From Lentisphaerota bacterium (GTDB taxonomy: Bacteria; Verrucomicrobiota; Kiritimatiellia; RFP12; JAAYNR01): 64,000 nt of DNA. The notes beneath the pieces are model-generated. The model saw only the letters and a list, made by a program, of their open reading frames with translations. It did not search any database and was not told the origin of the DNA. How positions within the stretch are numbered: position 1 is the first letter of the stretch; each line of letters begins with the position of its first letter. A program made the translations under genes and the position numbers. The stretch spans positions 5,648 to 69,647 of the forward strand of contig VGWG01000005.1 of the NCBI GenBank assembly GCA_016873675.1, given 5' to 3'. Positions 12,365-64,000 of the stretch are shown here, piece after piece.

Positions 12365-12640
12365 GCCAAAAAGCCCCACAAAACCCCGGCGTTGCTGGGG
12401 GTTTTTCATTTTACGCCCCGGTTTGCGGGCAAGCCCCGGTTGAGTGGCGTTCGTTCTTGTCCGATTCGTTTCTGACGTGGTATCCTTTCCGGTCTATGAC
12501 CGTGTCAGCATTCATTTCCAAGTGGCGTAAGGTGGAATTGAAGGAGCGCTCCGCCGTTTACGGCTGGTCCGCCGACCTCACCGACGATGCAATCCTCGAA
12601 CGGCTTATGCGTTGAATTCGGGGAATGCAAAAGGATGCCC

Positions 12641-16322: not shown

Positions 16323-16324
16323 CC

Positions 16325-16999: not shown

Positions 17000-17106
17000 A
17001 CACCACCGAACCCCAGCGCCTCACCGCCATCTGCACCCGAAAGCGCGCCACGCTGGGGCAGTTGAAGAAGTCGGTGCTGCACCAAGCCTTCACCGGAGAA
17101 CTTTAG
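16996..17106 (+). pseudogene. Orphan 3' fragment of a second hsdS allele (36 codons)
   Basis: It encodes MNTTEPQRLTAICTRKRATLGQLKKSVLHQAFTGEL. The hsdS C-terminus at 16250-16322 reads ...LAAIYSRKLAVLEALKKSLLHQAFTGEL. The final ~43 nt are near-identical (gaagaagtcgGtgctgcaccaagccttcaccggagaactTtag versus ...tcgCtg...actCtga). Confidence 0.65.
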
Positions 17107-17116
17107 GAGACGCCCC

Positions 17117-18157
17117 ATGAGCAGGGAAAAGAAACTCCAGATTCGTAACAGCACCGCCGAGTTCCTGATCTTCACCCGGCAGGCGGGCGAGGACGGCATC
17201 GAGGTGCGCGTCGAAGACGAGACCGTCTGGCTGACGCAGAAGCTGATGGCGGCGCTGTTCGAGGTGACCGTTCCGACCATCAGCGAGCATCTGGCCAACC
17301 TATATGCCCAAGGTGAAATCTCCGAACCGGCAACTCTTCGGAATTTCCGAACAGTTCAAAAGGAGGGTGCCCGCGATGTCGCCCGGAATATGGATTTCTA
17401 CAACCTCGACGCCATCATCGCCGTAGGCTTCCGGGTGAACTCCGTCCGCGCCATCCAGTTCCGGCAATGGGCCACAGGCGTCTTGCGGGATTTCGCGATC
17501 CGCGGCTACGTGCTGGACAAGGAGCGGCTGAAGAACGGGGCGTTCCTGAGCAAGGAGTATTACGAAAACCTGCTGGCGGAGATTCGCGAGATCCGGGCGA
17601 GCGAGCGGAAGTTCTACCAAAAGATCACCGACATCTACGCCACGGCGATGGATTACAGCCCGGAGGCGGAGACGACCCAGACATTTTTCGCCACAGTGCA
17701 GAACAAGCTGCATTTCGCCATCCATGGCCGTACCGCCGCCGAACTGATTGTGGAACGGGCGGACAGCAAAAAGGAGCGCATGGGCCTGACGACCTGGAAG
17801 AACGCGCCGCACGGGAAGATCCTCAAGCCGGACGTCGTGGTGGCAAAGAACTACCTCACCGAAAAGGAACTGAAGTCACTGGATCGGATCGTGACGATGT
17901 ATCTGGATTACGCGGAAGATCAAGCCGAGCGCGGCATCCCAATGACCATGCGGGACTGGGCGACCAAGCTGAACGCGTTCCTCCAGTTCAACGAACGGGA
18001 CATTCTCGATCATCCGGGGAAGGTGAGCCAGGCGGTGGCCAAGGCCTTTGCCGAAAGCGAGTTCGAGAAGTACCGGATCGTACAGGATCGCCTGTTTGAG
18101 TCGGACTTCGACCGGCATATCAGGAAGGCTTTGGAAGGCGGCAAGGAAGAATCATGA
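17117..18157 (+). CDS. rhuM: RhuM-family protein (R-M/island-associated DNA-binding protein)
   Basis: ETVWLTQKLMAALFEV, FYNLDAIIAVGFRVNS, RASERKFYQKITDIYATAMDYS and IVTMYLDYAEDQAERG closely follow the RhuM consensus. RBS AGGAGA is present. Confidence 0.8.
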   Translation: MSREKKLQIRNSTAEFLIFTRQAGEDGIEVRVEDETVWLTQKLMAALFEVTVPTISEHLANLYAQGEISEPATLRNFRTVQKEGARDVARNMDFYNLDAIIAVGFRVNSVRAIQFRQWATGVLRDFAIRGYVLDKERLKNGAFLSKEYYENLLAEIREIRASERKFYQKITDIYATAMDYSPEAETTQTFFATVQNKLHFAIHGRTAAELIVERADSKKERMGLTTWKNAPHGKILKPDVVVAKNYLTEKELKSLDRIVTMYLDYAEDQAERGIPMTMRDWATKLNAFLQFNERDILDHPGKVSQAVAKAFAESEFEKYRIVQDRLFESDFDRHIRKALEGGKEES

Positions 18158-43603: not shown

Positions 43604-44887
43604 CTATCCCGAAAACTTCGCCCGGTATGCCCAGAGGCCGAGCGCGGGGTTGCTAATGAAAAAGACCTCTTCTCCATCCGGCATCCGGTTCCAGCCATTC
43701 TGGAGCCGATCTAGATTGTAGCGCGCGGCCATCTCCGCGTACGGACTGGCATCAAACCCGACGGCGCGCACCGCGTCCAGTCCCATCCCGTCGCCCGGAC
43801 AATAGGTGATGTGGAAGCGGTCCTCCGACGAGCCGTGGATCAAATGGGCCGCCGCGCCCAGGTTGCCGCGCAGGTCCTCATTCTCCTCAACCGCCTTCAA
43901 CGTGGCGGGAGTTCCGCGATAGCCGTATTTGCGGATCAGCCCGTCGATCTTCGGGTCCTCACCGAATTCTTTGAGCGCCGGGGCGAGCACGACCAACTCG
44001 CCGCCGTCGGCGATCGCCATGCGCGTGCGGTAGATCGCCTTGTTGCCGAGCCAGGTGCTCTGAAACTCATGCGGATCGAGATAGACCACCACTTTCCGGG
44101 GCTCGCGTTCGAGCAGGTTGATGTTTACCCGGGCCGCCAGCGCGCAGGCCTCGCGATACACCTGCGCATCATCCCCGGCATAAAAACCGCGCAGATGCAT
44201 CTGCCGCGTGACGGCATCCTGCTCAACCACCGTGAGTATGTAAGTAATCGGCAGATCCTTTAAAAACGTCTCAACGGCCGTGTTGAAAAGCCGGCGCACC
44301 GGCGTATCAGCCCGGCCGAGGATGGTCTCCATGTTGCAGACCGCGCCCAAGAAGTGAGATTTGTTGATGATGTCCGCCCCGCCCGCGCCCACGACGATAT
44401 TCTTGGTGTAGTTGGCCATGCCGACCACCTCGTGCGGCACGACCTGCCCGATCGACACGATCAGGTCGTAACCCTTGAACAGCCGTTGGCTCACCTCCAC
44501 CCCGACCGAATACGCAACCTTGCCGCCGGAAAGCTCGGCGAGCAGCGATCCCGGAAGCTCGCCTGCGCGGACAATCCCGTTGCGCCAGTCATGCACCAGG
44601 AATGCCGTCAACGGAATCGTGTCGCCAAACATGAGGCGAAGCTGCTTCTCGGTCATGGCATTGTGCGTGCCCAGCGTCGGCATCACGTCCACCCGCACGC
44701 CCCGGGCCGTCAGCGCCTCGTAGGCCATCGCGGTGATCGGCCCCGCCTGCGAATTGAGACGGGTGTGATCCGGTGGCAGCAGAAGCACGCGGCGCAGGGG
44801 TTCGGGGCGCGAATCCAGGGTCTTTAACACCAGCGCGCGCAGTTCCTCGCTCGAAATAGAAACCTGTTCTCCGCACTGTATGATCAT
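43604..44887 (-). CDS. LarA-family (nickel-pincer-dependent) racemase/epimerase, DUF2088
   Basis: LLLPPDHTRLNSQAGPI, PTLGTHNAMTE and IGQVVPHEVVGMANYTKNIVVGAGG follow LarA N-domain motifs (PDxTR, GTH, the PHE...G pattern). It is 427 aa from the Met at 44887. The ORF-track start at 45088 is an extension. Confidence 0.65.
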   Translation of the reverse strand: MIIQCGEQVSISSEELRALVLKTLDSRPEPLRRVLLLPPDHTRLNSQAGPITAMAYEALTARGVRVDVMPTLGTHNAMTEKQLRLMFGDTIPLTAFLVHDWRNGIVRAGELPGSLLAELSGGKVAYSVGVEVSQRLFKGYDLIVSIGQVVPHEVVGMANYTKNIVVGAGGADIINKSHFLGAVCNMETILGRADTPVRRLFNTAVETFLKDLPITYILTVVEQDAVTRQMHLRGFYAGDDAQVYREACALAARVNINLLEREPRKVVVYLDPHEFQSTWLGNKAIYRTRMAIADGGELVVLAPALKEFGEDPKIDGLIRKYGYRGTPATLKAVEENEDLRGNLGAAAHLIHGSSEDRFHITYCPGDGMGLDAVRAVGFDASPYAEMAARYNLDRLQNGWNRMPDGEEVFFISNPALGLWAYRAKFSG

Positions 44888-44903
44888 AGGCGCAGGACTC
44901 CCG

Positions 44904-46355
44904 TCACACGACGTAGGTGGATGCGGCGGTGCTGCCGCCGCGGCCGGTCCAATTGGTGTGGAAGAACTGGCCCCGCGGCGCATCCGTGCGCTCATAGGTA
45001 TGGGCGCCGAAATAATCGCGCTGGGCCTGCAGCAGGTTCGCCGGCAGTCGCGCGCAGCGGTAGCCGTCATAATAGGCCAGCGCCGCACTGATGGCAGGGG
45101 TCGGAATCCCCAGCTTCACGGCCATGCGGACGACCCGCCGCCAGCCACCCTGGGCGCGCCGCATCTTGCCGCTGAAGAACGGGTCGAGCAGCAGGTTGGT
45201 CAAACCCGGATTGTGGTCAAACGCCTTCTTGATCTTGCCGAGAAACACCGAGCGGATGATGCAGCCGCCGCGCCACATCAACGCGATGCCGCCGTAGTTG
45301 AGGTTCCAGCCGTAGGACTGGGCGGCCGCGCGCATGAGTTGATACCCCTGCGCATAGCTGACCAGCTTCGAGGCGTAGAGCGCCTGCTTCAGGTCATTGA
45401 CAAAGCGCTGACGGGAACCGGTGAACGTCGTCGCTGCCGGGCCGGCGAGCTGCGCCGAAGCCGCCACACGCTCGTCCTTGAGCGCCGAGAGACAGCGGGC
45501 GAAGACCGCCTCGCCGATCAGCGTGAGCGGCTGGCCTTCGTCGAGCGCGGCCACGGCCGTCCATTTTCCGGTGCCCTTCTGACCGGCGGTGTCCAAAATG
45601 TTCTCCAGCACCGCTTCGCCCGCCTCGGTCCGGTACCCCAGGATGTCGCGGGTGATCTCGATCAGGTAGCTGTCCAGTTCCCCCGTGTTCCAGTCGGCAA
45701 AGATGGCGTGCATCTCATCGGCGGTGAGGCCGAGGCCATCCTTCATCACCTGGTAAACCTCGCAGATCATCTGCATGTCGCCGTATTCGATGCCGTTGTG
45801 AACCATCTTCACAAAATGACCGGCGCCGCCCTCGCCGACCCACTCGCAGCAGGGCTTGCCGGAGTCGGTCTGCGCCGCGATCTTCTGAAAGATCGGCTTC
45901 ACGGCGGGCCAGGCTGCGGGTGAACCGCCGGGCATGATCGACGGGCCAAGCAGCGCGCCCTCCTCGCCACCCGAGACGCCCGTGCCGACATACAGCAGCC
46001 CCCGGCTTTCCACGTATTGCGCGCGGCGAATGGTGTCGGGAAAATGACTGTTGCCGCCGTCAATGATAATGTCGCCGGGCTCGAGATGGGGAATGATCTG
46101 CTCGATGAATTCGTCCACGGCCCGGCCCGCCTTGACCAGCATCATCACCTTGCGCGGACGCTCCAAGCTGGCGCACAACGCCGCGATGCTGTGGCACCCG
46201 ATGAACTTCTTGCCGGCCCCGCGTCCGCCGATAAACGCATCCACCTTCTCAACCGTGCGGTTGAACACCGCCACCGTAAACCCCTTGCTCTCCATGTTGA
46301 GCACCAGGTTCTCGCCCATTACCGCCAAGCCAATCAAGCCGATGTCTGCCTTCAT
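44904..46355 (-). CDS. gnd: 6-phosphogluconate dehydrogenase (decarboxylating)
   Basis: MKADIGLIGLAVMGENLVLN (Rossmann fold), GTGVSGGEEGA, and WRGGCIIRS. Confidence 0.9.
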   Translation of the reverse strand: MKADIGLIGLAVMGENLVLNMESKGFTVAVFNRTVEKVDAFIGGRGAGKKFIGCHSIAALCASLERPRKVMMLVKAGRAVDEFIEQIIPHLEPGDIIIDGGNSHFPDTIRRAQYVESRGLLYVGTGVSGGEEGALLGPSIMPGGSPAAWPAVKPIFQKIAAQTDSGKPCCEWVGEGGAGHFVKMVHNGIEYGDMQMICEVYQVMKDGLGLTADEMHAIFADWNTGELDSYLIEITRDILGYRTEAGEAVLENILDTAGQKGTGKWTAVAALDEGQPLTLIGEAVFARCLSALKDERVAASAQLAGPAATTFTGSRQRFVNDLKQALYASKLVSYAQGYQLMRAAAQSYGWNLNYGGIALMWRGGCIIRSVFLGKIKKAFDHNPGLTNLLLDPFFSGKMRRAQGGWRRVVRMAVKLGIPTPAISAALAYYDGYRCARLPANLLQAQRDYFGAHTYERTDAPRGQFFHTNWTGRGGSTAASTYVV

Positions 46356-53519: not shown

Positions 53520-55607
53520 ATGGCGCGCAGCACCCCATTAACTCACGTACGTAACATCGGCATCATGGCTCACATTGACGCCGGCAAAACCACCTGCAGC
53601 GAACGCATCCTGTTTTATTCGGGAAAGAACTACAAGATCGGTGAAGTGCATGACGGCGCCGCCACCATGGATTATATGGTTCAGGAGCAGGAGCGCGGCA
53701 TCACCATCACGTCGGCGGCAACGGTCGTCACCTGGCGCGACCATCAGATCAGCCTGATCGACACCCCTGGCCACGTGGATTTCACGGCTGAGGTCGAGCG
53801 GTCGTTGCGCGTGCTCGACGGCGCGGTCGCGCTGTTTTGTGCCGTGGGCGGCGTCCAGCCGCAGAGCGAACAAGTGTGGCGGCAGTCCGAGAAATACGAA
53901 GTGCCGAAACTCTGCTTCATCAACAAGATGGATCGCGTCGGCGCCAATTATTTCGAGGTGATCGACGAAATCCGCAGCGAATTGGGCGGCAATCCTGTGC
54001 CGATGGTCTATCCGGTCGGGCAGGGCGAGGCGTTCGCGGGCGTCATCGATCTCCTGAACATGCGGCGGTGCATCTTTGATGAGGCGTCCAAGGGCGTGAA
54101 GATTGTCTATGCGGAGATTCCTGCTGAGTTGCTGGAGGAGTGCCGGAAATGGCGCAAGAATATTGTTGAGAAGGCCGCCGAGCAGGATGACGCCCTGATG
54201 GAGAAGTACTTTGCCGAGGGCGATCTCCCCATGGCGGACATCCTGGCCGGTCTACGGAAGGGAACGGTATCCCGTGCGATCGTCCCCGTCTATTGCGGAA
54301 CAGCCTTCAAAAACAAGGGCGTCCAGTTGCTGCTGGATGCCGTGTGCGATTTTCTCCCCTCGCCGTTGGATGTCGGCGCGGTCCATGCCAACGATGATCA
54401 GACGAAGGTGCGGCAGCCCGACGACAATGAGCCGTTCTCAGCCCTCGCGTTCAAGGTGATGTCGGACAAGCATATGGGCCGGATCATTTTCATCCGCATT
54501 TATTCAGGGACCCTGCGGATCGGCGACACACTCAAGAACAGCTCGCAGGACATCGATGTGCGCGTCGGCCGCCTGCTGCGCATGCATGCCAACCGGCAGG
54601 AGGCGATCGACGAGGCGAACGCAGGCGAAATTGTCGCCGTGGTCGGCCTCGGCAAGACGCGCACGGGCGACACGCTGTGTGATCGCGCACACCCGATCAT
54701 TCTGGAGAACATCGAGTTCCCGGCGCCGGTGATTTCGATCGCCATCCGGCCGGGGACGCGGAATGACAACGATAAACTGGGCGCGTCGCTGCACACGCTG
54801 GCCGAGGAAGACCCGACCTTCTTTGTGAAGTATGACCGCGAGACCGGCGAGACCGTCATCTCGGGAATGGGCGAACTGCATCTCGAAATCATTGTTGATC
54901 GCCTGCGCCGGGAATTCAACGTGGCCTGCGAGGTTGGCCGCCCCGAGGTCGCCTTCCGCGAGACGATCACCCAAGCGGTCGATGGCGAATACAAGCATGT
55001 CAAGCAGTCGGGCGGCCGCGGTCAGTATGCCCATGTCTGTCTGAAGATCGTCCCGCAGCCGGCCGGCACGGGCTTCTCGTTTGTCAGCGAGGTCAAGGGC
55101 GGAACGATTCCTACCGAGTACATTCCTGCTGTGGAGAAGGGGGTCATCAAGGCGCTGGAATCCGGCCCGTATGCGGGATATCCAGTGGTCGATGTGCAGG
55201 TCATCGTCTACGACGGCTCCTATCACGAGGTTGACTCGAACGAGTTTGCGTTCATCGAGGCGGCCCGCGTCTGCTTCCGCCAGGCTTTTATGCAAGGCGC
55301 TCCGGAGTTGCTCGAACCGGTCATGGCGGTCGAAGTGACGGTACCCGAAGACTACATGGGCGCGGCCACGGGCTCGCTCTGCCAGCGCCGCGGACGCGTC
55401 GAGGGCATGGAGGACAAGGGGGGCGCGAAGCTGGTCAACGGCACGGTGCCGCTTGGCGAGATGTTCGGCTATTCCAACACGATCCGCACGCTCACGCAGG
55501 GCCGCGGCTCGTTTGTGATGGCGTTCGAACGCTACGAGGCGGTGCCCTACGAGCTGACGGAGACGATCATCGAGAAGCGCCGCAAGGAAAACAAGATCCG
55601 CGGCTAG
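53520..55607 (+). CDS. fusA: Translation elongation factor G
   Basis: [15 protein letters not shown] (G1), DTPGHVDF (G3), NKMD (G4), and full domains II-V. RBS AAGGAG lies 7 nt upstream. Confidence 0.9.
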
Positions 55608-56374
55608 CCCTTTCGATAATACCCGCCCGTGGTGACGGTGCGGAAGCCGAACCGGTTGTAAAACGCCTCCAGCGGCTTGTCCCGTTCGGTGAGCAGGAAG
55701 AAGCGCGTGGCCCCGCGCCGCGCCTCTTCCGCCAACCCCATCTGCAGCAGCGCGCGGCCCAGGCCGCGCCCGCGTTCCGAGCGGAGCGTGCCGACATTGT
55801 AGAGCCCGGTCAGGCCGCCTCGAGACACGGCTGAGAGCAGACCCTTCGGCACCCCCGATTCTCGGACGAGCCAGTGGCGGATTTCCATCCATCCGCCTGC
55901 GTCCGGCACGCTGTCCGGTATCGGCACAGACGCGCCGGGGTCGGGATCCCCGTCCCAGAACGCATCGGCGTAAAGCCGGTTGAAGATCTCAGCGTCGGCC
56001 GCCGTCTCAACCCGCGTGAGCGAGAGGCCGGGCATCGGGGGCGCCGGGTCGGCGCCGTCGCGCGCCATCCAGCGGTCGGCGCTGAAACGACGCCACGGGG
56101 CGGGCAGCGGATGGGTCTGCGCGGCCTCGTCACGGTCCGCGAGATACCAGATCGGCTCGCGGCCCCGCGCCTCAAATTCGCGGGCGATGCGAGCTTCGTG
56201 TCGTAGGGCCACGTCGGCATCGAGCACGGCAAACAGATTCCATGTCGGATCGGACTCGTGCGCAGAGAAGATCCACACGCCCGAACCGTCGGCGGCCCGC
56301 GCCGCCTCGTCGATGAACATGCCGCGCTGGGCCTCGATATGGAAAGCCAGTAGTTCCCGGAATGTGGTGTTCAT
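55604..56374 (-). CDS. GNAT-family N-acetyltransferase
   Basis: A C-terminal acetyl-CoA-binding motif [27 protein letters not shown]. Its stop overlaps the fusA stop (convergent). Confidence 0.7.
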
Positions 56375-57267
56375 GTGAAAAGCGGCTCCAACCGGTAGCG
56401 CGGCAGCCGCCGCTCGGGGAGGTAGGATCGTTTGGAGCGGCGCAAGCCCGGTATGCCCATGTCCTGCTCAATATTAAGCCAGACGCAGCGGTTCGCCAGA
56501 TGGCGTGCCACCGCCACCCGCATCGCCTGAGCCGCCCCCGGGATACGCCGATCGGCCTTCTCGAAATGGACATTGCCGATCTCGGACCGGGTGAAGCTGA
56601 AAAGCGAGCAGGCGAGAAGTGCGCCATCGGCGGCGGCGAGTGCCAGCCCTTCCAGACCGAGCGCATCAAAATGGGCGAAGGCTCGCCGCAAGGCGTCGGC
56701 TTCGTCGGACAGCGCGCCCGCCGGATGCGCGGCATCGGCTCGCAGGGCAAGCTCCAGCGTCTCCTGCCGATTGACCGGGGTGATCGGAACACCACGCCAC
56801 CCCGGGACGTGTTCGTCAAAGCGGCGGATGAGACGCCGGGTGTTCTGATGGCCACGGCCAGCAAGGGCCGCCACGCTGGCTGTCCGCAGCAGATAGTCGT
56901 CCTCGTCCTCCGTCGTGCTCACCGCATAACGCGCGGACAACGCATCGGCGTGGCGCGTGACATACTCCTGCGGCACATCGCCCCACGCCAGCCGCAAACC
57001 GGTGCGTTCGGCCATCTCAGCCCGAACGGCCTCCAGTTCTACAGGTTCGAACGGCTCGCCGAACGGAAACAGCAGCGTGCTGACACGGCGGTTGCAGACC
57101 ACGCGACGGCCGGCGATCCCGGTGTGGACGGTGTCGTATACCCCGCTCCAGATGAACAGGTTGCAGAAGTTGCATTCACAGCTCCAGCGGCCCTGCACCG
57201 CTAGGGCCGCCTCGAACAGGCCGCGCTGATCCAATGAAACGGGTTGTAGGGGTGTCGAATTCATCAC
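56371..57267 (-). CDS. DUF2156-like acyltransferase-fold protein (MprF C-terminal-like)
   Basis: A 298-aa protein with an FCNLFIW motif near the N-terminus, typical of the DUF2156/lysyl-PG-synthase C-domain as I recall it. Weak. Confidence 0.4.
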   Translation of the reverse strand: MMNSTPLQPVSLDQRGLFEAALAVQGRWSCECNFCNLFIWSGVYDTVHTGIAGRRVVCNRRVSTLLFPFGEPFEPVELEAVRAEMAERTGLRLAWGDVPQEYVTRHADALSARYAVSTTEDEDDYLLRTASVAALAGRGHQNTRRLIRRFDEHVPGWRGVPITPVNRQETLELALRADAAHPAGALSDEADALRRAFAHFDALGLEGLALAAADGALLACSLFSFTRSEIGNVHFEKADRRIPGAAQAMRVAVARHLANRCVWLNIEQDMGIPGLRRSKRSYLPERRLPRYRLEPLFT

Positions 57268-57538: not shown

Positions 57539-58906
57539 ATGAAAAGAACGATCCGGATAGCGGCTGCGTCCTTGGGACTCGGCGCGGGTTTTTTGTCGGC
57601 CGGGACTGTCGGGTGGCGGGGTGACGGCACTGGACGCTTCCCCGGCGTGACCGCGCCGCTGCACTGGGACAAGGCCGAGTGCCTGGTGTGGAAGACGCCC
57701 ACGCCCAAGTGGTCGAACGCCAGCCCCATTCTGGTGGGCGACCGGATCTTCCTGTGCGCCGAGCCCGACAGCCTGCTCTGCCTGAATAAGCTCACCGGAG
57801 AGATCCTGTGGCAGCATTCGAACAGCTACGCAGACATCGCCCCGGAGGCGGATCGTGACGCGATCCGGACGAAGATGGTGCAGGTTGTCGCAATCGACAC
57901 ACGGATGAAAGAGCTCCAGAGCAAGCTGCGCCCACTCGAGAAGACGGCGAAAGAAAAGCCCGGCGATGCGGAGGTCCAGGCTGCGATCACCGCAAACAAA
58001 ACCGAGCAGAGTGTGCTGCGCGAGGAACGAAAGGCGGTTCAGGACTACGCCATGCCCAGTACCCACGCAGCCAACGGCTTTAGTTCATGCACCCCGGCGA
58101 CGGACGGGTCCCGCATCTTCGCCTTTTTCGGCAGCGGGGTCGCGGTCGCCTACGATCTCGAGGGAACGCGTCTATGGTCGCGCGTTGTCGAGAAACCAAC
58201 CGAAGGATGGGGCCACAGCGCGTCGCCGGTTCTGGCCGATGGCCGCCTCGTCATTCAGGTCCGCGATGTCCACGGACTCGATCCCGCCACTGGCAAGACC
58301 GTCTGGACGGTCAAATCGAAGCCCCGCTGGGGCGCCTGCGTGGGTGCTGTAATTGACGGTCAGGGGGTCGTGATCACCGCCAACGGCGAGCTCATCCGAG
58401 CAAAGGATGGCCTCGTTCTGGCCTCGGGACTGCACGGGCTGGAATACTGCGCGCCGCTGGTTCACGAAGGCGTGGTCTATTTCATCGAGAATGGCGGCAA
58501 GGCCTTCCGGCTGCCCGCGAAAGCGGATGGCTCTGAAAAGCCCGAGCTGTTGTGGCAGACTTCCCCCCCCAAAGATCGGTACTACGCCTCGCCGCTCTAT
58601 CACGACGGCGCAATTTACTGCATCAACCAGAATCGCGTGTATAGCATCATCGATGCGAAAGACGGAAAGGTGCTGAAGAGCCAAGCCATCAAGAGCCTGA
58701 AGCAAACGGTGTATCCGAGCGTCACCCTCGCTGGTACGTACATCGTGCTCGCCGCAGAGAGCGGAAGTGCCGTCATTCTGGAGCCTGGCGTCGCGATGAA
58801 GGAGGTCGCGACCTCCTCCATGGGGCCCTTCCGATCGACCCCGGTTTTTGACAATGACCGGGTCTACATCCGCACGCATGACGCGATGGTGTGCATTCAA
58901 CGGTGA
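57539..58906 (+). CDS. PQQ-like beta-propeller repeat protein (BamB-like) with a coiled-coil insert
   Basis: A signal peptide, then repeated ...DG.L.A.D..TGK..W motifs (LCLNKLTGEILWQ, LDPATGKTVWT), and a ~60-aa charged helical insertion (…RMKELQSKLRPLEKTAKEKPGDAEVQAAITANKTEQSVLREERKA…). Confidence 0.6.
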   Translation: MKRTIRIAAASLGLGAGFLSAGTVGWRGDGTGRFPGVTAPLHWDKAECLVWKTPTPKWSNASPILVGDRIFLCAEPDSLLCLNKLTGEILWQHSNSYADIAPEADRDAIRTKMVQVVAIDTRMKELQSKLRPLEKTAKEKPGDAEVQAAITANKTEQSVLREERKAVQDYAMPSTHAANGFSSCTPATDGSRIFAFFGSGVAVAYDLEGTRLWSRVVEKPTEGWGHSASPVLADGRLVIQVRDVHGLDPATGKTVWTVKSKPRWGACVGAVIDGQGVVITANGELIRAKDGLVLASGLHGLEYCAPLVHEGVVYFIENGGKAFRLPAKADGSEKPELLWQTSPPKDRYYASPLYHDGAIYCINQNRVYSIIDAKDGKVLKSQAIKSLKQTVYPSVTLAGTYIVLAAESGSAVILEPGVAMKEVATSSMGPFRSTPVFDNDRVYIRTHDAMVCIQR

Positions 58907-58921
58907 AGCCGGGAGCGCCCC

Positions 58922-59656
58922 ATGCAAACGGATCCCATTTTAATGTGCGCCTGTTCGCACGCAGATGTCATACCGGAAGAGAAGAAACGCGCGGTGGCCG
59001 CAGGACTGGAACGCTGCGGCCGCCCGGTGGTGATCGCGCCGGATTTGTGCGGCTGTGCTGCCCGGCGGGATCCGGTGTTGCGGGAGATCGCCGACGCCGC
59101 TCGCGCGACGGTCATCGCCTGTCATCCGCGGGCCGTCCATGGACTCTTCGCGTGGGCGGGCGCGCCACTCGACCCCGCCCGTGTCCAGTTCCTGGATATG
59201 CGCGCGGAGTCCGCCGCAACGCTGCTGGCCGCGATTACCTGCGGGAGCGACACTCCGGCGGCGATCCAGCGCGAACCCGACACGGCGGCCAGCGTTGGGG
59301 ATTTCTGGCGGCCGTGGTTTCCAGTCATCGATTACGCGCGATGCGTGAACTGCCGGCAGTGCCTCGAGTTCTGCCTCTTTGGCGTCTACGAGACCGATGC
59401 GGACGGCCGCGTCGCGGTCCGCCATCCGGATCACTGCAAAAACAACTGTCCGGCCTGCGCCCGCCTGTGTCCGCAGGCAGCGATCTTATTTCCCAAGATC
59501 GACGAGGAGTCGCCTGTGAGCGGCGCCCCCGACGATGCGGCGTCGGCGGCCGGAAAAGTACGGCTGACCCGCGAGCAATTGTTTGGCGCCAACGTCCTCG
59601 ACAAGCTGCGGGCGCGCCAGCAACGGCCGAGCCTGCTCAAGAACGAACACTACTGA
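58922..59656 (+). CDS. Ferredoxin-like protein, two [4Fe-4S] cluster motifs, with a Cys-rich N-domain
   Basis: CVNCRQCLEFC...CKNNCPACARLCP (2x CxxCxxCxxxCP-like), plus N-terminal MCACS...CGCAA...ACHPR. Its stop is 8 nt before the radical-SAM start. Confidence 0.6.
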   Translation: MQTDPILMCACSHADVIPEEKKRAVAAGLERCGRPVVIAPDLCGCAARRDPVLREIADAARATVIACHPRAVHGLFAWAGAPLDPARVQFLDMRAESAATLLAAITCGSDTPAAIQREPDTAASVGDFWRPWFPVIDYARCVNCRQCLEFCLFGVYETDADGRVAVRHPDHCKNNCPACARLCPQAAILFPKIDEESPVSGAPDDAASAAGKVRLTREQLFGANVLDKLRARQQRPSLLKNEHY

Positions 59657-59663
59657 GATCACC

Positions 59664-60860
59664 ATGATGTTTTCGCTCGCCAGACGGATGCTCGTCGAAC
59701 CGGATGCGCGCATTCTCGCAAAGTTTTCGTATCTCTTCGCCTGGAAAGGCTGCCGCTCCATGGCCGCGTTCCAACGGCGGGCCGCGCGCGGCGAGCGATC
59801 GCCCGCCGTGCTCTTCTTCTCCGTGACCGACCGCTGCAATCTGGCCTGCAGGGGGTGTTGGGTCACGCCCGGCCAACCGCCGCGCGAACTCGCTCCCGAA
59901 GCCCTGCACGCCGCGATCGGGGAATGGAAACGCGACAACCGGTCGCATTTCTTCGGGCTGCTGGGCGGGGAACCCCTGCTCTATCCGCACCTGATGGAGA
60001 TTCTCGCCAGCCACAGCGACTGCTATTTTCAAGTCCTCACCAACGGCATGCTGCTGGATAACGCCCGGGCCGCCGCCTTTCGCCGCCTGGGCAACGTGAC
60101 GCCCCTCATCAGCATCGAGGGCGACCGGCCGACGAGCGACGTGCGGCGCGGCGCGCGCGATGTCTGGCAGCGCGGCATGGATGCCATCGAGGCGTGCCGT
60201 CGGAACCGGCTGATCTTTGGCGTGGCGACCAGCATCTGCAAGAACAACCTGGCCGATCTGGCGTCAGACGCGTTTGTCGAGGACATGATCGCGCGCGGCG
60301 CGCATTATCTGTGGTACTACATCTACCGTCCGGTCGGCCCCGATCCCGCGCCTGAGCTGGCGCTCGACGAGGCCGACATTCTCACGCTACGACGCTTCCT
60401 GGTCGAGGCCCGCAGCCGCCACCCCATCCTGCTGGTGGACGCCTATTGGGATGCCGATGGGCGCGCAATCTGTCCCGCCGCCGAAGGCATCAGTCACCAC
60501 ATCGGCCCCGGTGGCGACATCGAGCCGTGTCCACCCGTGCAGTTCAGTTGTGAGACCCTCAGCGACGGAAACAGCCTCAACGCGCTGTTTCAGAACTCAG
60601 CTTTTCTGGAGCAGTTTCGGAAGCGGGCCGCCGCCGAGGGGCGCGGGTGTATCCTGCTGGCCAATCCGGCCGCATTAAGCGACGTGGTGAGCGCGGCGAA
60701 CGCCCGTGACACGAGCGGCCGAGGTTCGGGACGGCGGGAACTGGCCGCCATGGCTTGTCGGCCGTGTCATGATCTGCCCGGCCAAGAAATTCCTGAGAAG
60801 CATTGGCTGTACCGGTTCGCTAAGAAACGATGGTTCTGGGGATTTGGAACCTATGGATGA
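59664..60860 (+). CDS. Radical SAM enzyme
   Basis: The CNLACRGCW motif (CX3CX2C) 35 aa from the N-terminus, GGEPLL (SAM glycine-rich motif), and a TIM-barrel-like remainder. C-terminal Cys residues (CPAAEG, PCPPVQFSC, GRGC, CRPC) may form an auxiliary cluster. The stop overlaps the next start (ATGGATGA). Confidence 0.8.
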   Translation: MMFSLARRMLVEPDARILAKFSYLFAWKGCRSMAAFQRRAARGERSPAVLFFSVTDRCNLACRGCWVTPGQPPRELAPEALHAAIGEWKRDNRSHFFGLLGGEPLLYPHLMEILASHSDCYFQVLTNGMLLDNARAAAFRRLGNVTPLISIEGDRPTSDVRRGARDVWQRGMDAIEACRRNRLIFGVATSICKNNLADLASDAFVEDMIARGAHYLWYYIYRPVGPDPAPELALDEADILTLRRFLVEARSRHPILLVDAYWDADGRAICPAAEGISHHIGPGGDIEPCPPVQFSCETLSDGNSLNALFQNSAFLEQFRKRAAAEGRGCILLANPAALSDVVSAANARDTSGRGSGRRELAAMACRPCHDLPGQEIPEKHWLYRFAKKRWFWGFGTYG

Positions 60861-62523
60861 CGCGATCACACGGGACGCGCCGTCCGAAGGGGCGCACGCG
60901 CGGAAACGGCAAATCCGGCATTGGCGGGAATTGCGCCAGCACGCCGCTTGCGAAGTCGCCGGACTGAAGGACGTGCCTCCGTTTTCGCTGCGGCATCTGG
61001 TGGCGCTGGCTCGATCCCTGGCGAAGCGAATCGGGGTCTGCGACGAGACCGACATCAAACTGCTGGCGATCCTGATCCACAATGAAGCTTGGCGGGGAAC
61101 GGTTGCCAGAATCCCGTTCAGCAGGCGATTGCTGCTGCTGCCCCAATGTCTGCGGTCGCGCGATGCGTGTCCGGCGGGCCGGGACGAATTCGGATTGCTC
61201 TGCGACGCCTGCGGGCGCTGCGCGCTGGGGGCCCTGCAGAGCGAGGCGACGGCGCTGGGTTATGCCGTGCTGATCGCTGAGGGGGCGGAGGCCGTTGCCG
61301 GCATGCTCCGGGAGGGGCATGTGGACGCGGTCATCGGCGTGAGTTGTCTGCAGGCCCTGGAGCAGACCTTTTCGAGAATCGCCGACGAAGCGCTTCCCGC
61401 CATGGCCGTGCCGCTGCTGCGCGACGGATGCGACACCACTGACGTGGACGTGGATCTGCTGCTCGAATACATTCGTCTGACCGGCCCCGCCACCGACCCA
61501 CCGGGCCGCTCCGTGGACGCCATGCAGGCGGCCGTGCAGGCCTGGTTCAATCCCGAGGCGCTCCACTCGCTGCTGGGGCCCGAATCCAGCCACGCGCTCC
61601 ATAGTGCTCGGACGTGGCTGGCCGGATCGGGCAAACGCTGGCGACCGCTCCTGGCCGCTTCTGTGTATGACGCCCTCCAGTATCCCTCGGTCGAGGCCTC
61701 GCCGAAGCTGGTTCAGACCATCGCCGTCGCTGTGGAATGTTTTCACAAGGCCTCGCTGATCCACGACGACATCGAGGACAACGATGATTTCCGGAACGGC
61801 GCCCCGACGCTGCATCACGAGCACGGCGTGCCCATTGCGCTGAATGCGGGCGATCTGTTGATCGGGATCGGCTACCGGCTGCTCGCAACCTGTCCGGCGG
61901 ACGAAACCGCCCGCGTGCGGATGCTGACGGCCGCCGCGATGGCGCACTGCGACCTGTGTGTCGGACAAGGCGACGAGCTTCACTGGCGGGGCCGGTCAGA
62001 TGTGCCGGCATCCGCTGATCTGCTTCAGATGTTCAGCCGCAAGACGGCCCCCGCCTTTGAAGTGGCCCTTCTGATCGGCGCTATTGCCGGCGGTGCCGAT
62101 GCTGAAACGTGCGCAGCGCTGGCCGACTTCAGCCGCGCGCTCGGCGTTGCTTATCAGATCGGCGACGACCAGCAGGATGTCGAAGAGGATTCGGCCGGAG
62201 ACCTCGCATCGGGGCAGCAACCTTCCATGATGCTGGCGCTGCTGTTCGAGCGATGCACCGCCGCCGAGCGCCGGGCCATTCAGGATGCCTTGCTGGAGGC
62301 ACCCCGGTCCGCACGCACGCGGTCATTGACGCAGGCTCTGTTTGAACAGTACCAGGTGGCCGCCGCCGCCGAGGCGTTGCGGGAAGATTACCGTGACCGC
62401 GCCTTGCAGGCGCTGGCCCCGATCCGAGTCGTCCGGCTAAAGAGCCTGCTGACGCGGCTGGTCAAACGCATTCTCCCCCGAACTGAGCGAGGCGCCGATG
62501 TCCGCGAAAGCCCCCGTGCCTGA
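60853..62523 (+). CDS. Fusion protein: N-terminal DUF116-like Cys-rich domain + C-terminal trans-isoprenyl diphosphate synthase
   Basis: N-terminal ~250 aa with LLLLPQCLRSRDACPAG...CDACGRCALG...VIGVSCL, the DUF116 pattern from memory. C-terminal FARM LIHDDIEDNDDFRNG and SARM YQIGDDQQDVEED, plus KRWRP and GxxFQ-like regions of polyprenyl synthetases. It overlaps the upstream and downstream genes. Confidence 0.7.
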   Translation: MDDAITRDAPSEGAHARKRQIRHWRELRQHAACEVAGLKDVPPFSLRHLVALARSLAKRIGVCDETDIKLLAILIHNEAWRGTVARIPFSRRLLLLPQCLRSRDACPAGRDEFGLLCDACGRCALGALQSEATALGYAVLIAEGAEAVAGMLREGHVDAVIGVSCLQALEQTFSRIADEALPAMAVPLLRDGCDTTDVDVDLLLEYIRLTGPATDPPGRSVDAMQAAVQAWFNPEALHSLLGPESSHALHSARTWLAGSGKRWRPLLAASVYDALQYPSVEASPKLVQTIAVAVECFHKASLIHDDIEDNDDFRNGAPTLHHEHGVPIALNAGDLLIGIGYRLLATCPADETARVRMLTAAAMAHCDLCVGQGDELHWRGRSDVPASADLLQMFSRKTAPAFEVALLIGAIAGGADAETCAALADFSRALGVAYQIGDDQQDVEEDSAGDLASGQQPSMMLALLFERCTAAERRAIQDALLEAPRSARTRSLTQALFEQYQVAAAAEALREDYRDRALQALAPIRVVRLKSLLTRLVKRILPRTERGADVRESPRA

Positions 62524-63481
62524 CATCATCGCCGCCGCCGCCCAGGCCCGCATTCTGATCAGTTCGGAAGGCGCGGCTCGTGTGGCTGCCTTTTTTCTGT
62601 CGGCGCGCGGCGCGGCCGGTCTCTTTCGCGACCGGGCCGGCCGGCCGGATCTCTATTACTCGGTCTTCGGCCTCGGGGGGCTGATCGCGCTGGGGGTCGG
62701 CCTGCCGCAACCCCGTGACGTACGACGGTGTCTCGACGCGGAGGCCGGCGTCACGAAGGAAGAATCGTTCACAGACTGTGTTTCGCGCATCCGGTGTCTT
62801 CGCTGTCTGAATCTTCTGGGGGATGTGCAACCGGGAGACGCGCTGAAGTTCGAGCAATCCGTCGCCCGTCTGGAGCGCTATCGCAGCGCCGATGGTGGAT
62901 ACTCGCATGAACGCGAACACGCCCCACAGGGGACAGTCTACGCCGCCTATCTGGTCGAACAGGCCCATCGGGATGCCGGAATCGCCTGGCGCGATCCCGA
63001 GCGAACGATCACCGCACTCGACACGCTTTGCACACCCGACGGCGGCTACACCAATCATTCCGGAACACCGCGCGGCTCCACGACCGCCACCGCTGCCGCT
63101 GCGGTGCTGTTGATCCGGCATGGAAAATGCCAACCGGCGCGTCGGGCGGTGGACTATCTGGCGAGGCAGCGTCATCCCGACGGCGGCTACCGGGCATCGC
63201 AAGCGGCGCCGCTGCCCGACCTGCTCTCAACCGCAACCGCGCTCTACGCCGAAAGCCTGTGCGAACCGCTCACGGATAAACCGCCCTTTCGCCCGACCGC
63301 CGCTTTCATCGAAGGACTCTGGAACGGCGATAGCGGATTCCGCAGCCAGGCAGCCGATCCGGTCTCTGACGTCGAATACACCTTCTACGCGCTGCTCGCT
63401 CTCGGCGCGCTGGCGGCGATCCATCCGTCTCAACCGAAGGCCCTTCCCCCGGCAGCAGTGAGCTGTCAAACATCGTTGTAA
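62498..63481 (+). CDS. Prenyltransferase/squalene-oxidase-repeat (alpha/alpha toroid) protein
   Basis: Four spaced DGG(Y/F) repeats (SADGGYSH, TPDGGYTNH, HPDGGYRAS, NGDSGFRS), each followed by hydrophobic helices. This is the PF00432/PF13243-type repeat of protein prenyltransferase beta subunits and class II terpene cyclases. The start overlaps the previous gene by 26 nt. Confidence 0.6.
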   Translation: MSAKAPVPDIIAAAAQARILISSEGAARVAAFFLSARGAAGLFRDRAGRPDLYYSVFGLGGLIALGVGLPQPRDVRRCLDAEAGVTKEESFTDCVSRIRCLRCLNLLGDVQPGDALKFEQSVARLERYRSADGGYSHEREHAPQGTVYAAYLVEQAHRDAGIAWRDPERTITALDTLCTPDGGYTNHSGTPRGSTTATAAAAVLLIRHGKCQPARRAVDYLARQRHPDGGYRASQAAPLPDLLSTATALYAESLCEPLTDKPPFRPTAAFIEGLWNGDSGFRSQAADPVSDVEYTFYALLALGALAAIHPSQPKALPPAAVSCQTSL

Positions 63482-64000
63482 CGGAACGTGCGGGTGCCAG
63501 TGGCAGTTGTGATGGAAAGGGCGTACTGAAGCGATCGTTCCTTCCCCAGTCGGTGACCCATTCGGGAGATGGCCTTGCTCACCGCATGCGCGGACATCCC
63601 CGTGTGCTCCCCTAACTCGGCCAATGTGAGCGCACAGTGCCGCCGCCCCAGCCAGAGGGCGATGTCCCGCCCCCGTCCGTTACCCCAGCGCCAGACGGAA
63701 GCGTCCGCGCCCGCCGGGCTGCGGACGCCCGCCACAGCACGGGCGATCTCGCCGAAGGGCAGCAGTCGCCGCCACGCGCGCGCGTTGGTCCCCGGAGACG
63801 ACCGACCGAGGATCCCCGCGCGCACCCGCCGCACGAATTCAGTCCCGCCGATCACGAGGGCGCTACTCAAACGCGCGCCCGCGCCCTCTCGCACGCTTTG
63901 AGCCACCGCCCCCTCCGCCTGCCTGCGATACTCCGCCCTCACGCCCCCCGCGCTCGCTAGGAGCGTGCCACAGGTCAACCACTCCTGCGCCGACGCGTAG
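63466..64000 (-). CDS. DnaA-C-like helix-turn-helix protein, partial (N-terminus outside the window; possible transposase-family ORF)
   Basis: The C-terminal ...DIALWLGRRHCALTLAELGEHTGMSAHAVSKAISRMGHRL resembles the DnaA_C/Bac_DnaA_C HTH found at the C-terminus of IS200-like/REP-associated proteins. The frame is open to the window edge. Confidence 0.4.
   Translation of the reverse strand, partial: YASAQEWLTCGTLLASAGGVRAEYRRQAEGAVAQSVREGAGARLSSALVIGGTEFVRRVRAGILGRSSPGTNARAWRRLLPFGEIARAVAGVRSPAGADASVWRWGNGRGRDIALWLGRRHCALTLAELGEHTGMSAHAVSKAISRMGHRLGKERSLQYALSITTATGTRTFRYNDV

Follow-up and report, generated by a model that had tools for sequence, protein, structure and literature searches.

The window, a 64,000-nucleotide stretch of contig VGWG01000005.1, contains four genes packed end to end (Table 1). 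The ORF coordinates confirm the preliminary description of them as consecutive and on the same strand between 58922 and 63481. Their overlaps were also described correctly, but the gap between genes 1 and 2 is 7 nucleotides (nt), not 8, because gene 1 ends at 59656 and the gene 2 ATG is at 59664. Genes 2 and 3 overlap by 8 nt, ATGGATGA, with the gene 2 stop codon at 60858-60860 and the gene 3 ATG at 60853. Genes 3 and 4 overlap by 26 nt, with the gene 3 stop codon at 62521-62523 and the gene 4 ATG at 62498. The suggestion that the operon runs on past the window was not borne out; a convergent ORF overlaps the gene 4 stop codon, and similarity to L005, a relative that is 87 to 90% identical, stops at 63425, ahead of that codon. 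A PQQ_2 beta-propeller gene, whose product has a signal-peptide-like N terminus, lies 15 nt upstream of gene 1. It is missing from L005; PQQ_2 genes again adjoin the cluster in some other lineages.

Table 1. Features of the four-gene locus and its upstream neighbor (window coordinates)
Feature	Start	End	Strand	Length or span	NCBI entry	Assignment
PQQ_2 beta-propeller gene	57539	58906	+			Pfam PQQ_2; variable neighbor, outside the core
Gene 1	58922	59656	+	244 aa	MBM4163127.1, "hypothetical protein"	u109 4-Cys domain and 2x[4Fe-4S] ferredoxin
u109 domain	58937	59254	+	Gene 1 aa 6-111		43% identity, E 2e-22 to L004:5593-5922
Dicluster ferredoxin domain	59306	59524	+	Gene 1 aa 129-201		Fer4_10/6/9/7 and PorD/HgcB-like matches
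Gene 2	59664	60860	+	398 aa	MBM4163128.1	Twitch-type radical SAM enzyme
Gene 3	60853	62523	+	556 aa	MBM4163129.1, "DUF116 domain-containing protein" (longer 605-aa form)	DUF116::trans-isoprenyl diphosphate synthase fusion
DUF116 domain	61036	61470	+	Gene 3 aa 62-206		PF01976, 106 bits
Isoprenyl diphosphate synthase domain	61612	62301	+	Gene 3 aa 254-483 (Pfam span)		PF00348 polyprenyl_synt, 147 bits
Gene 4	62498	63481	+	327 aa	MBM4163130.1, "hypothetical protein"	Single (alpha/alpha)6 toroid

HMM searches with the four proteins confirmed the four domain types and reached no curated NCBIfam equivalog. Gene 1 had been called a 2x[4Fe-4S] ferredoxin. The ferredoxin domain is there, but the protein is more than a ferredoxin, with a second domain, u109, fused at its N terminus. 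The dicluster matches cover aa 132 to 190, score slightly under the Pfam thresholds, and include all eight Cys (C141/144/147/151 and C172/176/179/183-P), which are conserved in 47 orthologs. The first 111 aa form a separate conserved 4-Cys domain with invariant C9, C11, D41-L42-C43, A66-C67, and R70 (alignment A5); no Pfam family matched it in a Pfam search. In many relatives u109 is a stand-alone gene. Gene 1 is homologous to two adjacent genes of L004, one encoding a 109-aa u109 protein (5593-5922) and the other a ferredoxin 50% identical to the ferredoxin part. We found u109 in 51 of 84 loci, either as an in-frame fusion or on a gene of its own, and it is N terminal in every one of 469 representative clusters. 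It probably binds a metal or Fe-S center. One metagenomic protein is a u109::Fer4::rSAM triple fusion, in which the radical SAM (rSAM) part is 54% identical to full-length gene 2. This fusion strengthens the idea that the ferredoxin, earlier described as a likely electron donor, is a dedicated partner of the rSAM enzyme.

Gene 2 had been described as an rSAM enzyme with a CX3CX2C motif and no B12 domain, and the domain search agrees (PF04055, 60 bits). The motif is C58/62/65, and C120, C270, C289, and C329 are also invariant (CX13GX4C; alignment A3). The C-terminal tail is aromatic and basic, and is conserved. The orthologs number in the thousands. Gene 2 fell far short of the NCBIfam cutoffs for HpnH (35 bits; cutoff, 225) and PqqE (32 bits; cutoff, 381), and NirJ, AhbC/D, MftC, and SkfB were rejected in the same way. 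MqnC, MqnE, and MoaA were far under cutoff or absent from the NCBIfam search. In a profile comparison against the PDB, SkfB scored 73 bits, BlsE 63, and GDGT-MAS 29. The nearest solved relatives (SkfB, BlsE, and PqqE) act on peptides or nucleosides, not lipids, which counts against a lipid substrate. In Phycisphaerae and Pirellulales, the gene 2-type enzyme is swapped for a different rSAM with a B12-like or MiaB-like N-domain. Therefore, the radical step may differ between lineages.

Pfam and the motifs confirm that gene 3 is a trans-isoprenyl diphosphate synthase (IDS) with both DDxxD motifs intact (DDIED and DDQQD), fused to an N-terminal DUF116 domain. The fusion is present in 120 of the 120 best homologs, and its occurrence in Pirellula staleyi has already been remarked (Makarova et al. 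2015, PMC5898192). The DUF116 domain has seven invariant Cys, C99, C106, C117-x2-C120-x2-C123, C165, and C193 (alignment A1), and its Cys loop is modeled at low confidence in the predicted structure. We predict an Fe-S/flavodoxin-like redox domain; an earlier study predicted that DUF116 folds like a flavodoxin and takes part in electron transfer (Makarova et al. 2015, PMC5898192). Archaeal DUF116 proteins (arCOG02078) share the Pfam domain, the CxxCxxC motif with further Cys, and the predicted electron-transfer role. However, they have two N-terminal TM helices and lie beside sulfite/nitrite reductase or ArsA-like genes, whereas the gene 3 domain is soluble and IDS fused. In a terpenoid cluster of Bipolaricaulota, a solo DUF116 gene adjoins ispH.

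The IDS domain has GKRWRP, the FARM D305-D-I-E-D309, K397-T398, and the SARM D438-D-Q-Q-D442. Ala is invariant at position -5 to the FARM, where the aligned P. horikoshii GGPPS (1wy0) has a chain-limiting Tyr, and the stretch ahead of the FARM looks like that of long-chain synthases. Because of this Ala, the predicted product exceeds C20 and would be about C25-C40. The prediction hangs on a single position, since by overall similarity the nearest relatives of the domain are short-chain FPP/GGPP synthases. A synthase making medium- or long-chain polyprenyl diphosphate could also be a housekeeping enzyme for menaquinone or another cofactor, with the rSAM, ferredoxin, and DUF116 serving cofactor synthesis or supplying electrons to IspG/IspH of the MEP pathway. 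The pre-FARM region and the very wide, housekeeping-like distribution in PVC genomes would suit this role, as would the predicted electron transfer by DUF116 (PMC5898192) and its placement beside ispH in Bipolaricaulota. We consider it unlikely, because it leaves the coupled toroid and the cyclase that adjoins the core in relatives (see below) without account, the rSAM falls outside the menaquinone and cofactor families (MqnC, MqnE, MoaA), and neither the cluster nor the window has a UbiA-type prenyltransferase or quinone gene.

The predicted structure of gene 4 (pLDDT 94) bears out its description as an alpha/alpha-toroid of the prenyltransferase-beta/terpene-cyclase type. Its closest folds are protein-prenyltransferase beta subunits and class II cyclases, and it gives a Prenyltrans match of 33 bits. 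By sequence profile, the class II beta domain of drimenyl diphosphate synthase scores 61 bits versus 30 to 40 for protein prenyltransferase beta. The Zn ligands of the one fold and the DxDD acid of the other are both missing; across the toroid family, we found no conserved Cys or His, and the catalytic Asp is lost. Because every known catalytic motif is missing, the toroid more probably serves in binding or hand-over than as a catalyst. Gene 4 is only 12 to 15% identical to protein prenyltransferase beta subunits (FTase, GGTase-I/II), with neither a zinc site nor an alpha subunit.

These features bear on a RiPP-like prenylation of a protein or peptide. In this scenario, the IDS-like domain would, like ComQ, supply or transfer a prenyl group, the toroid would hold the prenyl donor as a prenyltransferase-beta-like subunit, and the SPASM/twitch rSAM would cross-link or modify a peptide or protein substrate, for example the GcvH-like protein of the larger clusters. 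The nearest solved or curated relatives of the rSAM are indeed peptide maturases (SkfB, PqqE, MftC, GeoRSP), and about half of the clusters encode a GcvH-like carrier with its lysine. However, with no invariant Cys or His, the toroid family lacks the Asp/Cys/His zinc site of protein prenyltransferases, and the core has neither an alpha-subunit-like gene nor a conserved precursor-peptide gene. A GcvH-like gene is missing from the four-gene form of the window. In most lineages, a genuine DxDD class II cyclase lies next to the core, which suggests that the isoprenoid is free. We therefore regard prenylation of this kind as quite improbable.

We compared 84 loci, 80 from species-representative genomes plus L001-L004, with the window additional. 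The order Fer-rSAM-fusion-toroid occurs in Kiritimatiellae (L001) and Planctomycetota (L003 and L004), and the block is kept across Verrucomicrobiota, Planctomycetota, Lentisphaerota, and Kiritimatiellia, as the neighborhood check proposed earlier would have it. Dozens of genomes, belonging to at least three phyla, share the gene order; many of the taxon labels derive from metagenome bins and could in some cases be incorrect. Among loci with long enough flanks, the fusion gene has a nearby ferredoxin gene in 47 of 60 (u109 not being scored in this count), any rSAM in 44 of 60, and a toroid in 51 of 69. Three look-ups anchored on the rSAM gave the same cluster each time. Each domain type is common alone, and about a quarter of the fusion genes with adequate flanks lack at least one partner nearby, as could be expected if four unrelated genes were adjacent by accident. 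The likelihood of this is negligible: order and translational coupling are kept across phyla, and three kinds of fusion tie the components together. The similarity to L005 also spans 58769 to 63425, ending 56 nt short of the gene 4 stop, and this near match to the four-gene extent counts against chance.

Relatives often have further partners, namely an SHC-like cyclase (32 of 58 loci), a GcvH-like protein (28 of 60) that retains the lipoyl-lysine motif, a CobW-like GTPase (29 of 60), and an IscS-like desulfurase (503 bits). The cluster in the window is the core only and has none of these four genes. The desulfurase, of IscS/NifS type, and the GcvH-like protein, both frequent in the clusters, would fit sulfur insertion, with the rSAM acting like LipA or MiaB on the isoprenoid or on a group carried by the GcvH-like protein and the IscS-like enzyme as donor. 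The alternative rSAM of Phycisphaerae weakly matches the MiaB/RimO family. However, the twitch rSAM lacks the auxiliary-cluster motifs of LipA, BioB, and MiaB and has no such NCBIfam score, the window and its nearest relatives lack IscS and GcvH in the cluster, and the need for about six Fe-S clusters would explain IscS. Sulfur insertion is thus very unlikely.

The SHC-like neighbor has about 600 aa, an invariant PDADDT (DxDD), and 68 bits to SHC. It fits the published SHC-like clade, a sister of the epoxy-polyprenyl cyclases (Lon15, AtoE), with 550-700 aa in PVC bacteria and Acidobacteriota, catalytic residues kept, and a genomic context taken to imply a non-squalene precursor (PMC7306690, PMC12324236). 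The correspondence is to these described features, and the window has no cyclase. The clade was still without an assigned function in 2025 (PMC12324236). The larger cluster form has been noticed indirectly through this cyclase's context (PMC7306690); the main texts of the SHC-like papers treat the cyclase only and do not analyze the four-gene core.

Among known systems, hpn hopanoid clusters likewise group an isoprenoid synthase, a DxDD class II cyclase (in the full form), and an rSAM, and a membrane lipid is the likely common role. The present system differs in lacking HpnCDE and Sqs, in its divergent SHC-like cyclase, in an rSAM that is not HpnH, in its Fe-S-fused IDS, and in adding a catalytically "dead" toroid and the u109/ferredoxin module. 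The Bacillus C35 sesquarterpene pathway (HepS/HepT, YtpB, SqhC) resembles the proposed system in that a regular head-to-tail medium-chain polyprenyl diphosphate, not squalene, is the cyclase substrate. We take the gene 3 FARM surroundings, ASLIHDDIED, to resemble HepT. However, the present system has no YtpB-type class I synthase or HepS-like small subunit, adds an rSAM and three Fe-S modules, and occurs in other phyla. Lipid-modifying rSAMs (Tes/GDGT-MAS, Mss, GrsA/B, HpnH, HpnJ, and HpnP/R; reviewed in PMC13459092) also accompany isoprenoid genes and have an auxiliary cluster, and the B12-domain-type rSAM at the equivalent position in some lineages echoes their auxiliary-cluster versus cobalamin alternatives. 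In contrast to these, gene 2 does not belong to their families by sequence (29 bits to GDGT-MAS and 35 to HpnH) and is served by a dedicated ferredoxin, either fused or encoded alongside. The preliminary description recognized no characterized pathway in the combination, and we too found no curated family or paper describing it; literature searches found no characterization of the function of the four-gene core. The cluster is widespread in PVC bacteria and not previously characterized.

On balance, and in support of the preliminary interpretation, the four genes probably make up the smallest core of a pathway dedicated to an isoprenoid lipid, which occurs across the PVC superphylum. We suggest that the C-terminal domain of gene 3, whose catalytic motifs are all intact, would add IPP to an allylic diphosphate and that the gene 4 toroid would take up the hydrophobic medium- or long-chain prenyl product as a binding or hand-over subunit. 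The twitch rSAM may then alter the chain by H-abstraction or adenosyl-radical chemistry, with C-C bond formation or functionalization at an unactivated carbon or double bond as candidate reactions. Electrons for SAM cleavage would come through an Fe-S relay of u109, the 2x[4Fe-4S] ferredoxin, and the DUF116 domain on the synthase. In most relatives, the adjoining DxDD-bearing SHC-like cyclase would then cyclize the product, and the IscS-like desulfurase, CobW-like GTPase, and GcvH-like lipoyl protein probably aid cluster assembly and redox supply. The window lineage, having the core only, would make an uncyclized product or encode the cyclizing enzyme elsewhere.

The four genes are packed closely together. 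Reading the junctions directly, we found 7 nt between the stop of gene 1 (59656) and the ATG of gene 2 (59664), not the 8 nt of the preliminary description. The two overlaps were as first described: the TGA of gene 2 (60858 to 60860) lies inside ATGGATGA, with the gene 3 start at 60853, and the ATG of gene 4 (62498) lies 26 nt inside gene 3, which ends with a TGA at 62521 to 62523. The window covers 64 kb of a 69,873-bp contig from a Lentisphaerota metagenome-assembled genome, and the four products match NCBI MBM4163127.1-MBM4163130.1 (locus tags FJ222_01595-01610) exactly. These entries carry only the labels "hypothetical," "radical SAM protein," and "DUF116 domain-containing protein." A scan for promoters and terminators was uninformative, and no such signals were found.

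Features of the window (all coordinates are window positions)
Feature	Position	Strand	Description
Four-gene block	58922-63481	+	ORF calling, junctions read directly
Gene 1	58922-59656	+	u109 (new N-terminal four-Cys domain) and ferredoxin
Gene 2	59664-60860	+	Radical SAM
Gene 3	60853-62523	+	DUF116 and isoprenyl diphosphate synthase (IDS)
Gene 4	62498-63481	+	Toroid
HsdM, HsdS, HsdR	12587-20646	+	Type I restriction-modification; YhcG/DUF1016 PDDEXK nuclease gene between hsdM and hsdS
Giant 2839-aa protein	22151-30670	-	GH94 supersandwich, catalytic, and glucoamylase-like domains
494-aa protein	43604-45088	-	Sole domain match lactate racemase N-terminal (Lar_N); ORF call overlaps 6-phosphogluconate dehydrogenase ORF call
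LPG_synthase_C and GNAT acetyltransferase	55604-57267	-	Divergently oriented pair; DUF2156, MprF C-terminal-like; conserved in L005
PQQ_2 β-propeller gene	57539-58906	+	15 nt upstream of gene 1; signal-peptide-like N terminus
170-aa ORF	63466-63978	-	Convergent, overlaps gene 4 stop by 16 nt

The window is colinear with the homologous locus of a close relative (L005) at 87 to 90% DNA identity, with two differences. One is the upstream PQQ_2 propeller gene, which we rejected as a member of the core because it is missing from L005. This gene is preceded by a GGGAG motif; elsewhere, PQQ_2 genes adjoin the cluster in loci L001 and L007 and lie directly upstream of the fused u109-ferredoxin gene in L012, L039, L052, L074, and L081. 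The other difference is the end of the similarity, which stops at 63425, 56 nt short of the gene 4 stop. The suggestion that the operon continues past the window was not borne out, because the ORF that follows the toroid gene is convergent and similarity to L005 goes no further than the toroid gene. Therefore, the conserved unit here consists of four genes, without continuation beyond the window. The next ORF had been described as a partial HTH/transposase-like gene on the opposite strand. It is on the opposite strand and has a weak MarR_2-type HTH match, but it is not partial, and none of the fetched loci contained a homologue.

The fusion encoded by gene 3 is widely conserved. Each of the 120 best database homologues of gene 3 combines DUF116 with an IDS domain. 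When one genome per species was scanned, at least 595 relatives were recovered, and the DUF116 part was covered in all of the best 80 of these. By taxon label, about 40 of the best 80 are of the Verrucomicrobiota type, about 25 are of the Planctomycetota type, 3 are Lentisphaerota bins, and 12 are other or unclear, among them Holophagae, Acidobacteriota, and Hydrogenedentales. We surveyed the partners of the fusion in these 80 loci plus L001 to L004 (84 loci in total) and the window, using tblastn with the window proteins and clustering of all ORFs, and counted only loci with enough flank. A ferredoxin gene lies beside the fusion in 47 of 60 loci (u109 was scored separately), a radical SAM gene occupies the same position in 44 of 60, and a small toroid is present in 51 of 69. 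Three look-ups anchored on orthologues of the radical SAM enzyme, not on the fusion, each returned the same cluster. Co-occurrence of the fusion with the radical SAM and toroid genes, a check proposed at the outset, was seen in most of the counted loci but not in all. Chance adjacency of the four genes is excluded.

Pfam and NCBIfam searches confirmed the four domain types, and none of the four proteins reached an NCBIfam equivalog. No curated family, solved structure, or paper that we found assigns a function to any of them, in agreement with the earlier view that the combination matches no characterized pathway.

Gene 3 has the expected features of a trans-IDS joined to DUF116. The IDS domain passed the PF00348 profile cutoff (147 bits) and has the IDS fold. 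Both DDxxD motifs (D305-D-I-E-D309 and D438-D-Q-Q-D442), the GKRxRP IPP-binding motif (G260-K-R-W-R-P265), and the KT motif (K397-T398) are invariant in 28 sequences. In this enzyme class, the residue five positions before the first DDxxD motif (FARM) limits product length. Compared with the archaeal GGPP synthase 1wy0, gene 3 has an Ala in place of the chain-limiting Tyr at this position, and the Ala is invariant across the fusion family alignment. This substitution predicts a product longer than C20. The overall similarity of the domain is highest to short-chain enzymes, so the chain length remains a prediction.

The DUF116 half scored 106.1 bits against PF01976 (cutoff, 25) and contains seven invariant Cys residues (C99, C106, C117, C120, C123, C165, and C193), including a CxxCxxC motif. 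The two-domain model has a pTM of 0.85, which suggests that the two domains are held in a fixed arrangement. In the model, the Cys loop of DUF116 has low confidence, which would be expected of a metal site. DUF116 has been predicted to be a flavodoxin-like, electron-transfer domain, and the fusion has been mentioned in Pirellula staleyi (PMC5898192). That prediction was the only paper on DUF116 that our literature search found, and the search returned no functional study. The legend of Fig. S12 in a preprint on a cultured Bipolaricaulota strain (bioRxiv 10.1101/2025.11.21.689855) lists a terpenoid cluster in which a stand-alone DUF116 gene lies beside IspH, squalene-hopene cyclase, HpnH, and polyprenyl synthetase genes. 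As given in that legend, this cluster is a second, independent association of DUF116 with isoprenoids.

Gene 1 had been described as a 2x[4Fe-4S] ferredoxin. The Pfam/NCBIfam scan detected a dicluster ferredoxin region, and both four-Cys motifs are present (C141-x2-C-x2-C-x3-C151 and C172-x3-C-x2-C-x3-C183-P; conserved in 43 to 44 of 47 sequences), with a Pfam score slightly under the cutoff (23.4 versus 25.5). The dicluster domain is there, but gene 1 is not a ferredoxin alone, since it also has the N-terminal u109 domain. A stand-alone 109-aa protein of a Planctomycetota locus (L004:5593-5922), whose gene sits just upstream of the ferredoxin gene, shares 43% identity (E 2e-22) with residues 6 to 111. 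We found u109 in 51 of the 84 loci, either as an in-frame fusion, as in the window, or as a separate gene. In the u109 alignment (A5), nine positions are invariant, four of them Cys (C9, C11, D41-L42-C43, A66-C67, and R70), and the domain matched no Pfam family even at E 1. On this sequence basis, u109 is a newly defined four-Cys domain. An hhalign comparison with the DUF116::IDS fusion found no relationship (probability, 0.2%). Faint matches to Pfam LYTB (IspH; E 0.035) in 2 of the 30 u109 domains of A5 (e.g., window 58937-59254) are probably due to chance, although IspH is itself an isoprenoid synthesis enzyme with a Cys-ligated Fe-S center.

Among 1.84 billion representative proteins there are 469 u109 clusters, and u109 is always N-terminal. 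These proteins are either about 110 to 180 aa (u109 alone) or 235 to 440 aa long, and all nine scanned proteins of 262 to 439 aa had Fer4 matches. One 675-aa metagenomic protein (P0508) is a u109::Fer4::Radical_SAM fusion whose radical SAM part is 54% identical to gene 2 over its full length; as a single case, it could be a gene-calling or frameshift artifact. The fusions among u109, Fer4, and radical SAM tie the three together as one functional unit, and they support the earlier proposal that gene 1 may serve as the reductant of gene 2. A housekeeping supply of quinone side chains next to an unrelated redox module is less well supported.

Gene 2 was confirmed as a radical SAM enzyme without a B12 domain (PF04055, 60 bits; cutoff, 29.5). 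In 30 aligned orthologues, the CX3CX2C cysteines (C58, C62, and C65) are invariant, as are C120, C270, C289, and C329. The invariant C270-x13-G284-x4-C289 is the N-terminal half of a SPASM/twitch motif, and the CX2CX5CX3C part of SPASM is absent. By sequence, this pattern fits a twitch-like arrangement with a single auxiliary cluster. The C-terminal tail is aromatic/basic and strongly conserved (PEKHW.YRFAKK.WF.GFG.Y), and it is possibly an interfacial membrane anchor.

Among solved structures, the profile of the gene 2 family scored best against SkfB (73 bits) and then BlsE (63 bits). Similarity to the tetraether synthase GDGT-MAS (7tol) was weak (28.7 bits) and covered the radical SAM core only (profile positions 51 to 179), not the full length. 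The score for HpnH, the adenosylhopane synthase, was 35.1 bits against a cutoff of 225 (TIGR03470). As had been argued, gene 2 is not of the HpnR/HpnP type; it has no B12 domain, and it matches no lipid-modifying radical SAM enzyme named in a 2026 review (Tes, Mss, Gms, GrsA/B, Gmm, Cds, HpnH/J/P/R, Jaw5, and the ladderane enzymes; PMC13459092). It also lies outside PqqE (32 versus 381), the anaerobic sulfatase maturases, and the other named SPASM maturases, none of whose equivalogs was reached. Even the best-scoring curated family, GeoRSP, was not reached (53; cutoff, 400). In Phycisphaerae and Pirellulales, the position of gene 2 is held by a different, 519-aa radical SAM protein with a B12-binding-like or MiaB-like N-domain (TIGR04013, 82 bits; L010, L012, L019, L030, L039, L052, L074, L081, and L083; e.g., L074:1250-2809). 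This protein is either a non-orthologous replacement or an enzyme of different chemistry on the same scaffold.

Gene 4 had been assigned to the prenyltransferase-β/terpene-cyclase type, and its fold agrees with this. It matches the Pfam Prenyltrans toroid (33 bits), its AlphaFold model is confident (pLDDT 94), and it has both the (α/α)6 toroid of protein prenyltransferase β and the β-domain toroid of class II terpene cyclases. Its closest match by sequence profile is the β domain of drimenyl diphosphate synthase (61 bits). However, the catalytic features of both types are missing. Neither Cys nor His is invariant at any position across 49 or 61 aligned members, so the Zn2+ site of prenyltransferases (Asp, Cys, and His) is absent from the family. 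We also considered a D/H/C metal site conserved on one helix of the toroid but rejected it, because the window protein retains neither the Asp nor the His. In an hhalign alignment, P-D241-L-L-S-T of gene 4 lies opposite P-D-A-D-D-T of the SHC-like (DxDD-bearing) cyclases of relatives, and thus Leu replaces the class II general acid. R99, Y53, Y54, F57, and W275 are invariant in the family, and R46 and R129 are conserved in at least 90%. With both catalytic apparatuses gone and the Arg and aromatic residues kept, we infer that gene 4 would be a subunit that binds or hands over a prenyl diphosphate and not an enzyme of either known type. The conserved cluster has no gene with the helical-hairpin repeats of a prenyltransferase α subunit, and protein or peptide prenylation is less well supported.

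Most Planctomycetota and Verrucomicrobiota add further genes to the cluster, as found by ORF clustering and Pfam/NCBIfam scans. A SHC-like protein of about 600 aa with an invariant DxDD is present in 32 of 58 loci with enough downstream flank, a GcvH-like protein with its lipoyl-lysine motif kept in 28 of 60, a CobW-like GTPase in 29 of 60, and an IscS/NifS-type cysteine desulfurase (503 bits) in 19 of 58. Sulfur insertion is a less well supported reading of the cluster. In the Planctomycetota locus L004 (4012-13627), each of the nine cluster genes abuts or overlaps its neighbor. In L085 (6238-8256), the CobW-like GTPase carries a fused MIP (aquaporin-like) channel domain. Between the ferredoxin and radical SAM genes, we saw a HicA toxin gene (L085:9761-9979) and a 600-aa AAA_15 ATPase gene (L086:8199-10001), with the cluster otherwise unbroken.

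We rejected the idea that further cluster genes are hidden elsewhere in the window, since its 64 kb contain no homologue of GcvH, CobW, the SHC-like protein, or IscS. The SHC-like gene is also absent beside the core in L005. The SHC-like protein is distant from squalene-hopene cyclase (68 bits). In their treatment of planctomycete SHC-like proteins, Santana-Molina et al. (2020; PMC7306690) report that the catalytic residues are kept and that the genomic context suggests a non-squalene precursor. A 2025 preprint places this SHC-like clade in PVC, FCB, Spirochaetota, and Acidobacteriota (PMC12324236). Both phylogenetic studies regard the PVC SHC-like proteins as the main uncharacterized branch of the terpenoid cyclases and describe the substrate as unknown (PMC7306690, PMC12324236). 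Matched by description, the cyclases of the cluster likely belong to this published clade, for which a rapidly evolving dimer surface has been reported.

No other isoprenoid genes were found in the 64 kb. The remaining genes are ordinary: EF-G, pentose-phosphate pathway enzymes, phosphoketolase, type I restriction-modification, and a giant GH94 protein that resembles cyclic β-1,2-glucan synthase. The LPG_synthase_C and GNAT pair may have a lipid or aminoacyl-transfer function, and no operon link of this pair was shown.

In the best-supported model, the IDS domain of gene 3 would make a medium- or long-chain polyprenyl diphosphate, which the toroid would receive. The twitch-like radical SAM enzyme would then modify the chain by radical chemistry, with electrons reaching it via u109, the ferredoxin, and DUF116. 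In loci that encode a SHC-like enzyme, this enzyme would cyclize the product afterwards, and IscS and CobW would serve the assembly of about six Fe-S clusters. Isoprenoid lipid clusters that include a radical SAM enzyme are a known kind of system. New in this one are the synthase-tethered, predicted Fe-S domain, the four-Cys domain, a toroid with neither catalytic apparatus, and a radical SAM enzyme with its own ferredoxin.

We tentatively suggest, as a possibility short of an even chance, that bacteria make a new family of polyprenoid lipids and that the four-gene block is its ancestral precursor module. In this scenario, a regular C30-C40 polyprenyl diphosphate would come from the Fe-S-coupled synthase, and the dedicated radical SAM enzyme would remodel it (e.g., by removing or replacing the diphosphate or forming a C-C bond) into the non-squalene substrate of the SHC-like cyclases. 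u109 and DUF116, the latter a synthase-tethered electron relay, would be two new redox domains. If so, the cyclized products would presumably be candidate sources of orphan polycyclic terpane biomarkers, the tricyclic terpane series among them.

These results identify a gene set that travels with the SHC-like cyclases, of which the window holds the minimal four-gene core, and they give DUF116 a concrete setting. That the radical SAM enzyme has a ferredoxin of its own, whether fused or adjacent, will help in vitro reconstitution, and the substrate question for the SHC-like clade is now directly testable via the operon. Hundreds of species-representative genomes from abundant soil, freshwater, marine, and gut-associated phyla carry the cluster. 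Therefore, its product is probably a common but unrecognized lipid.
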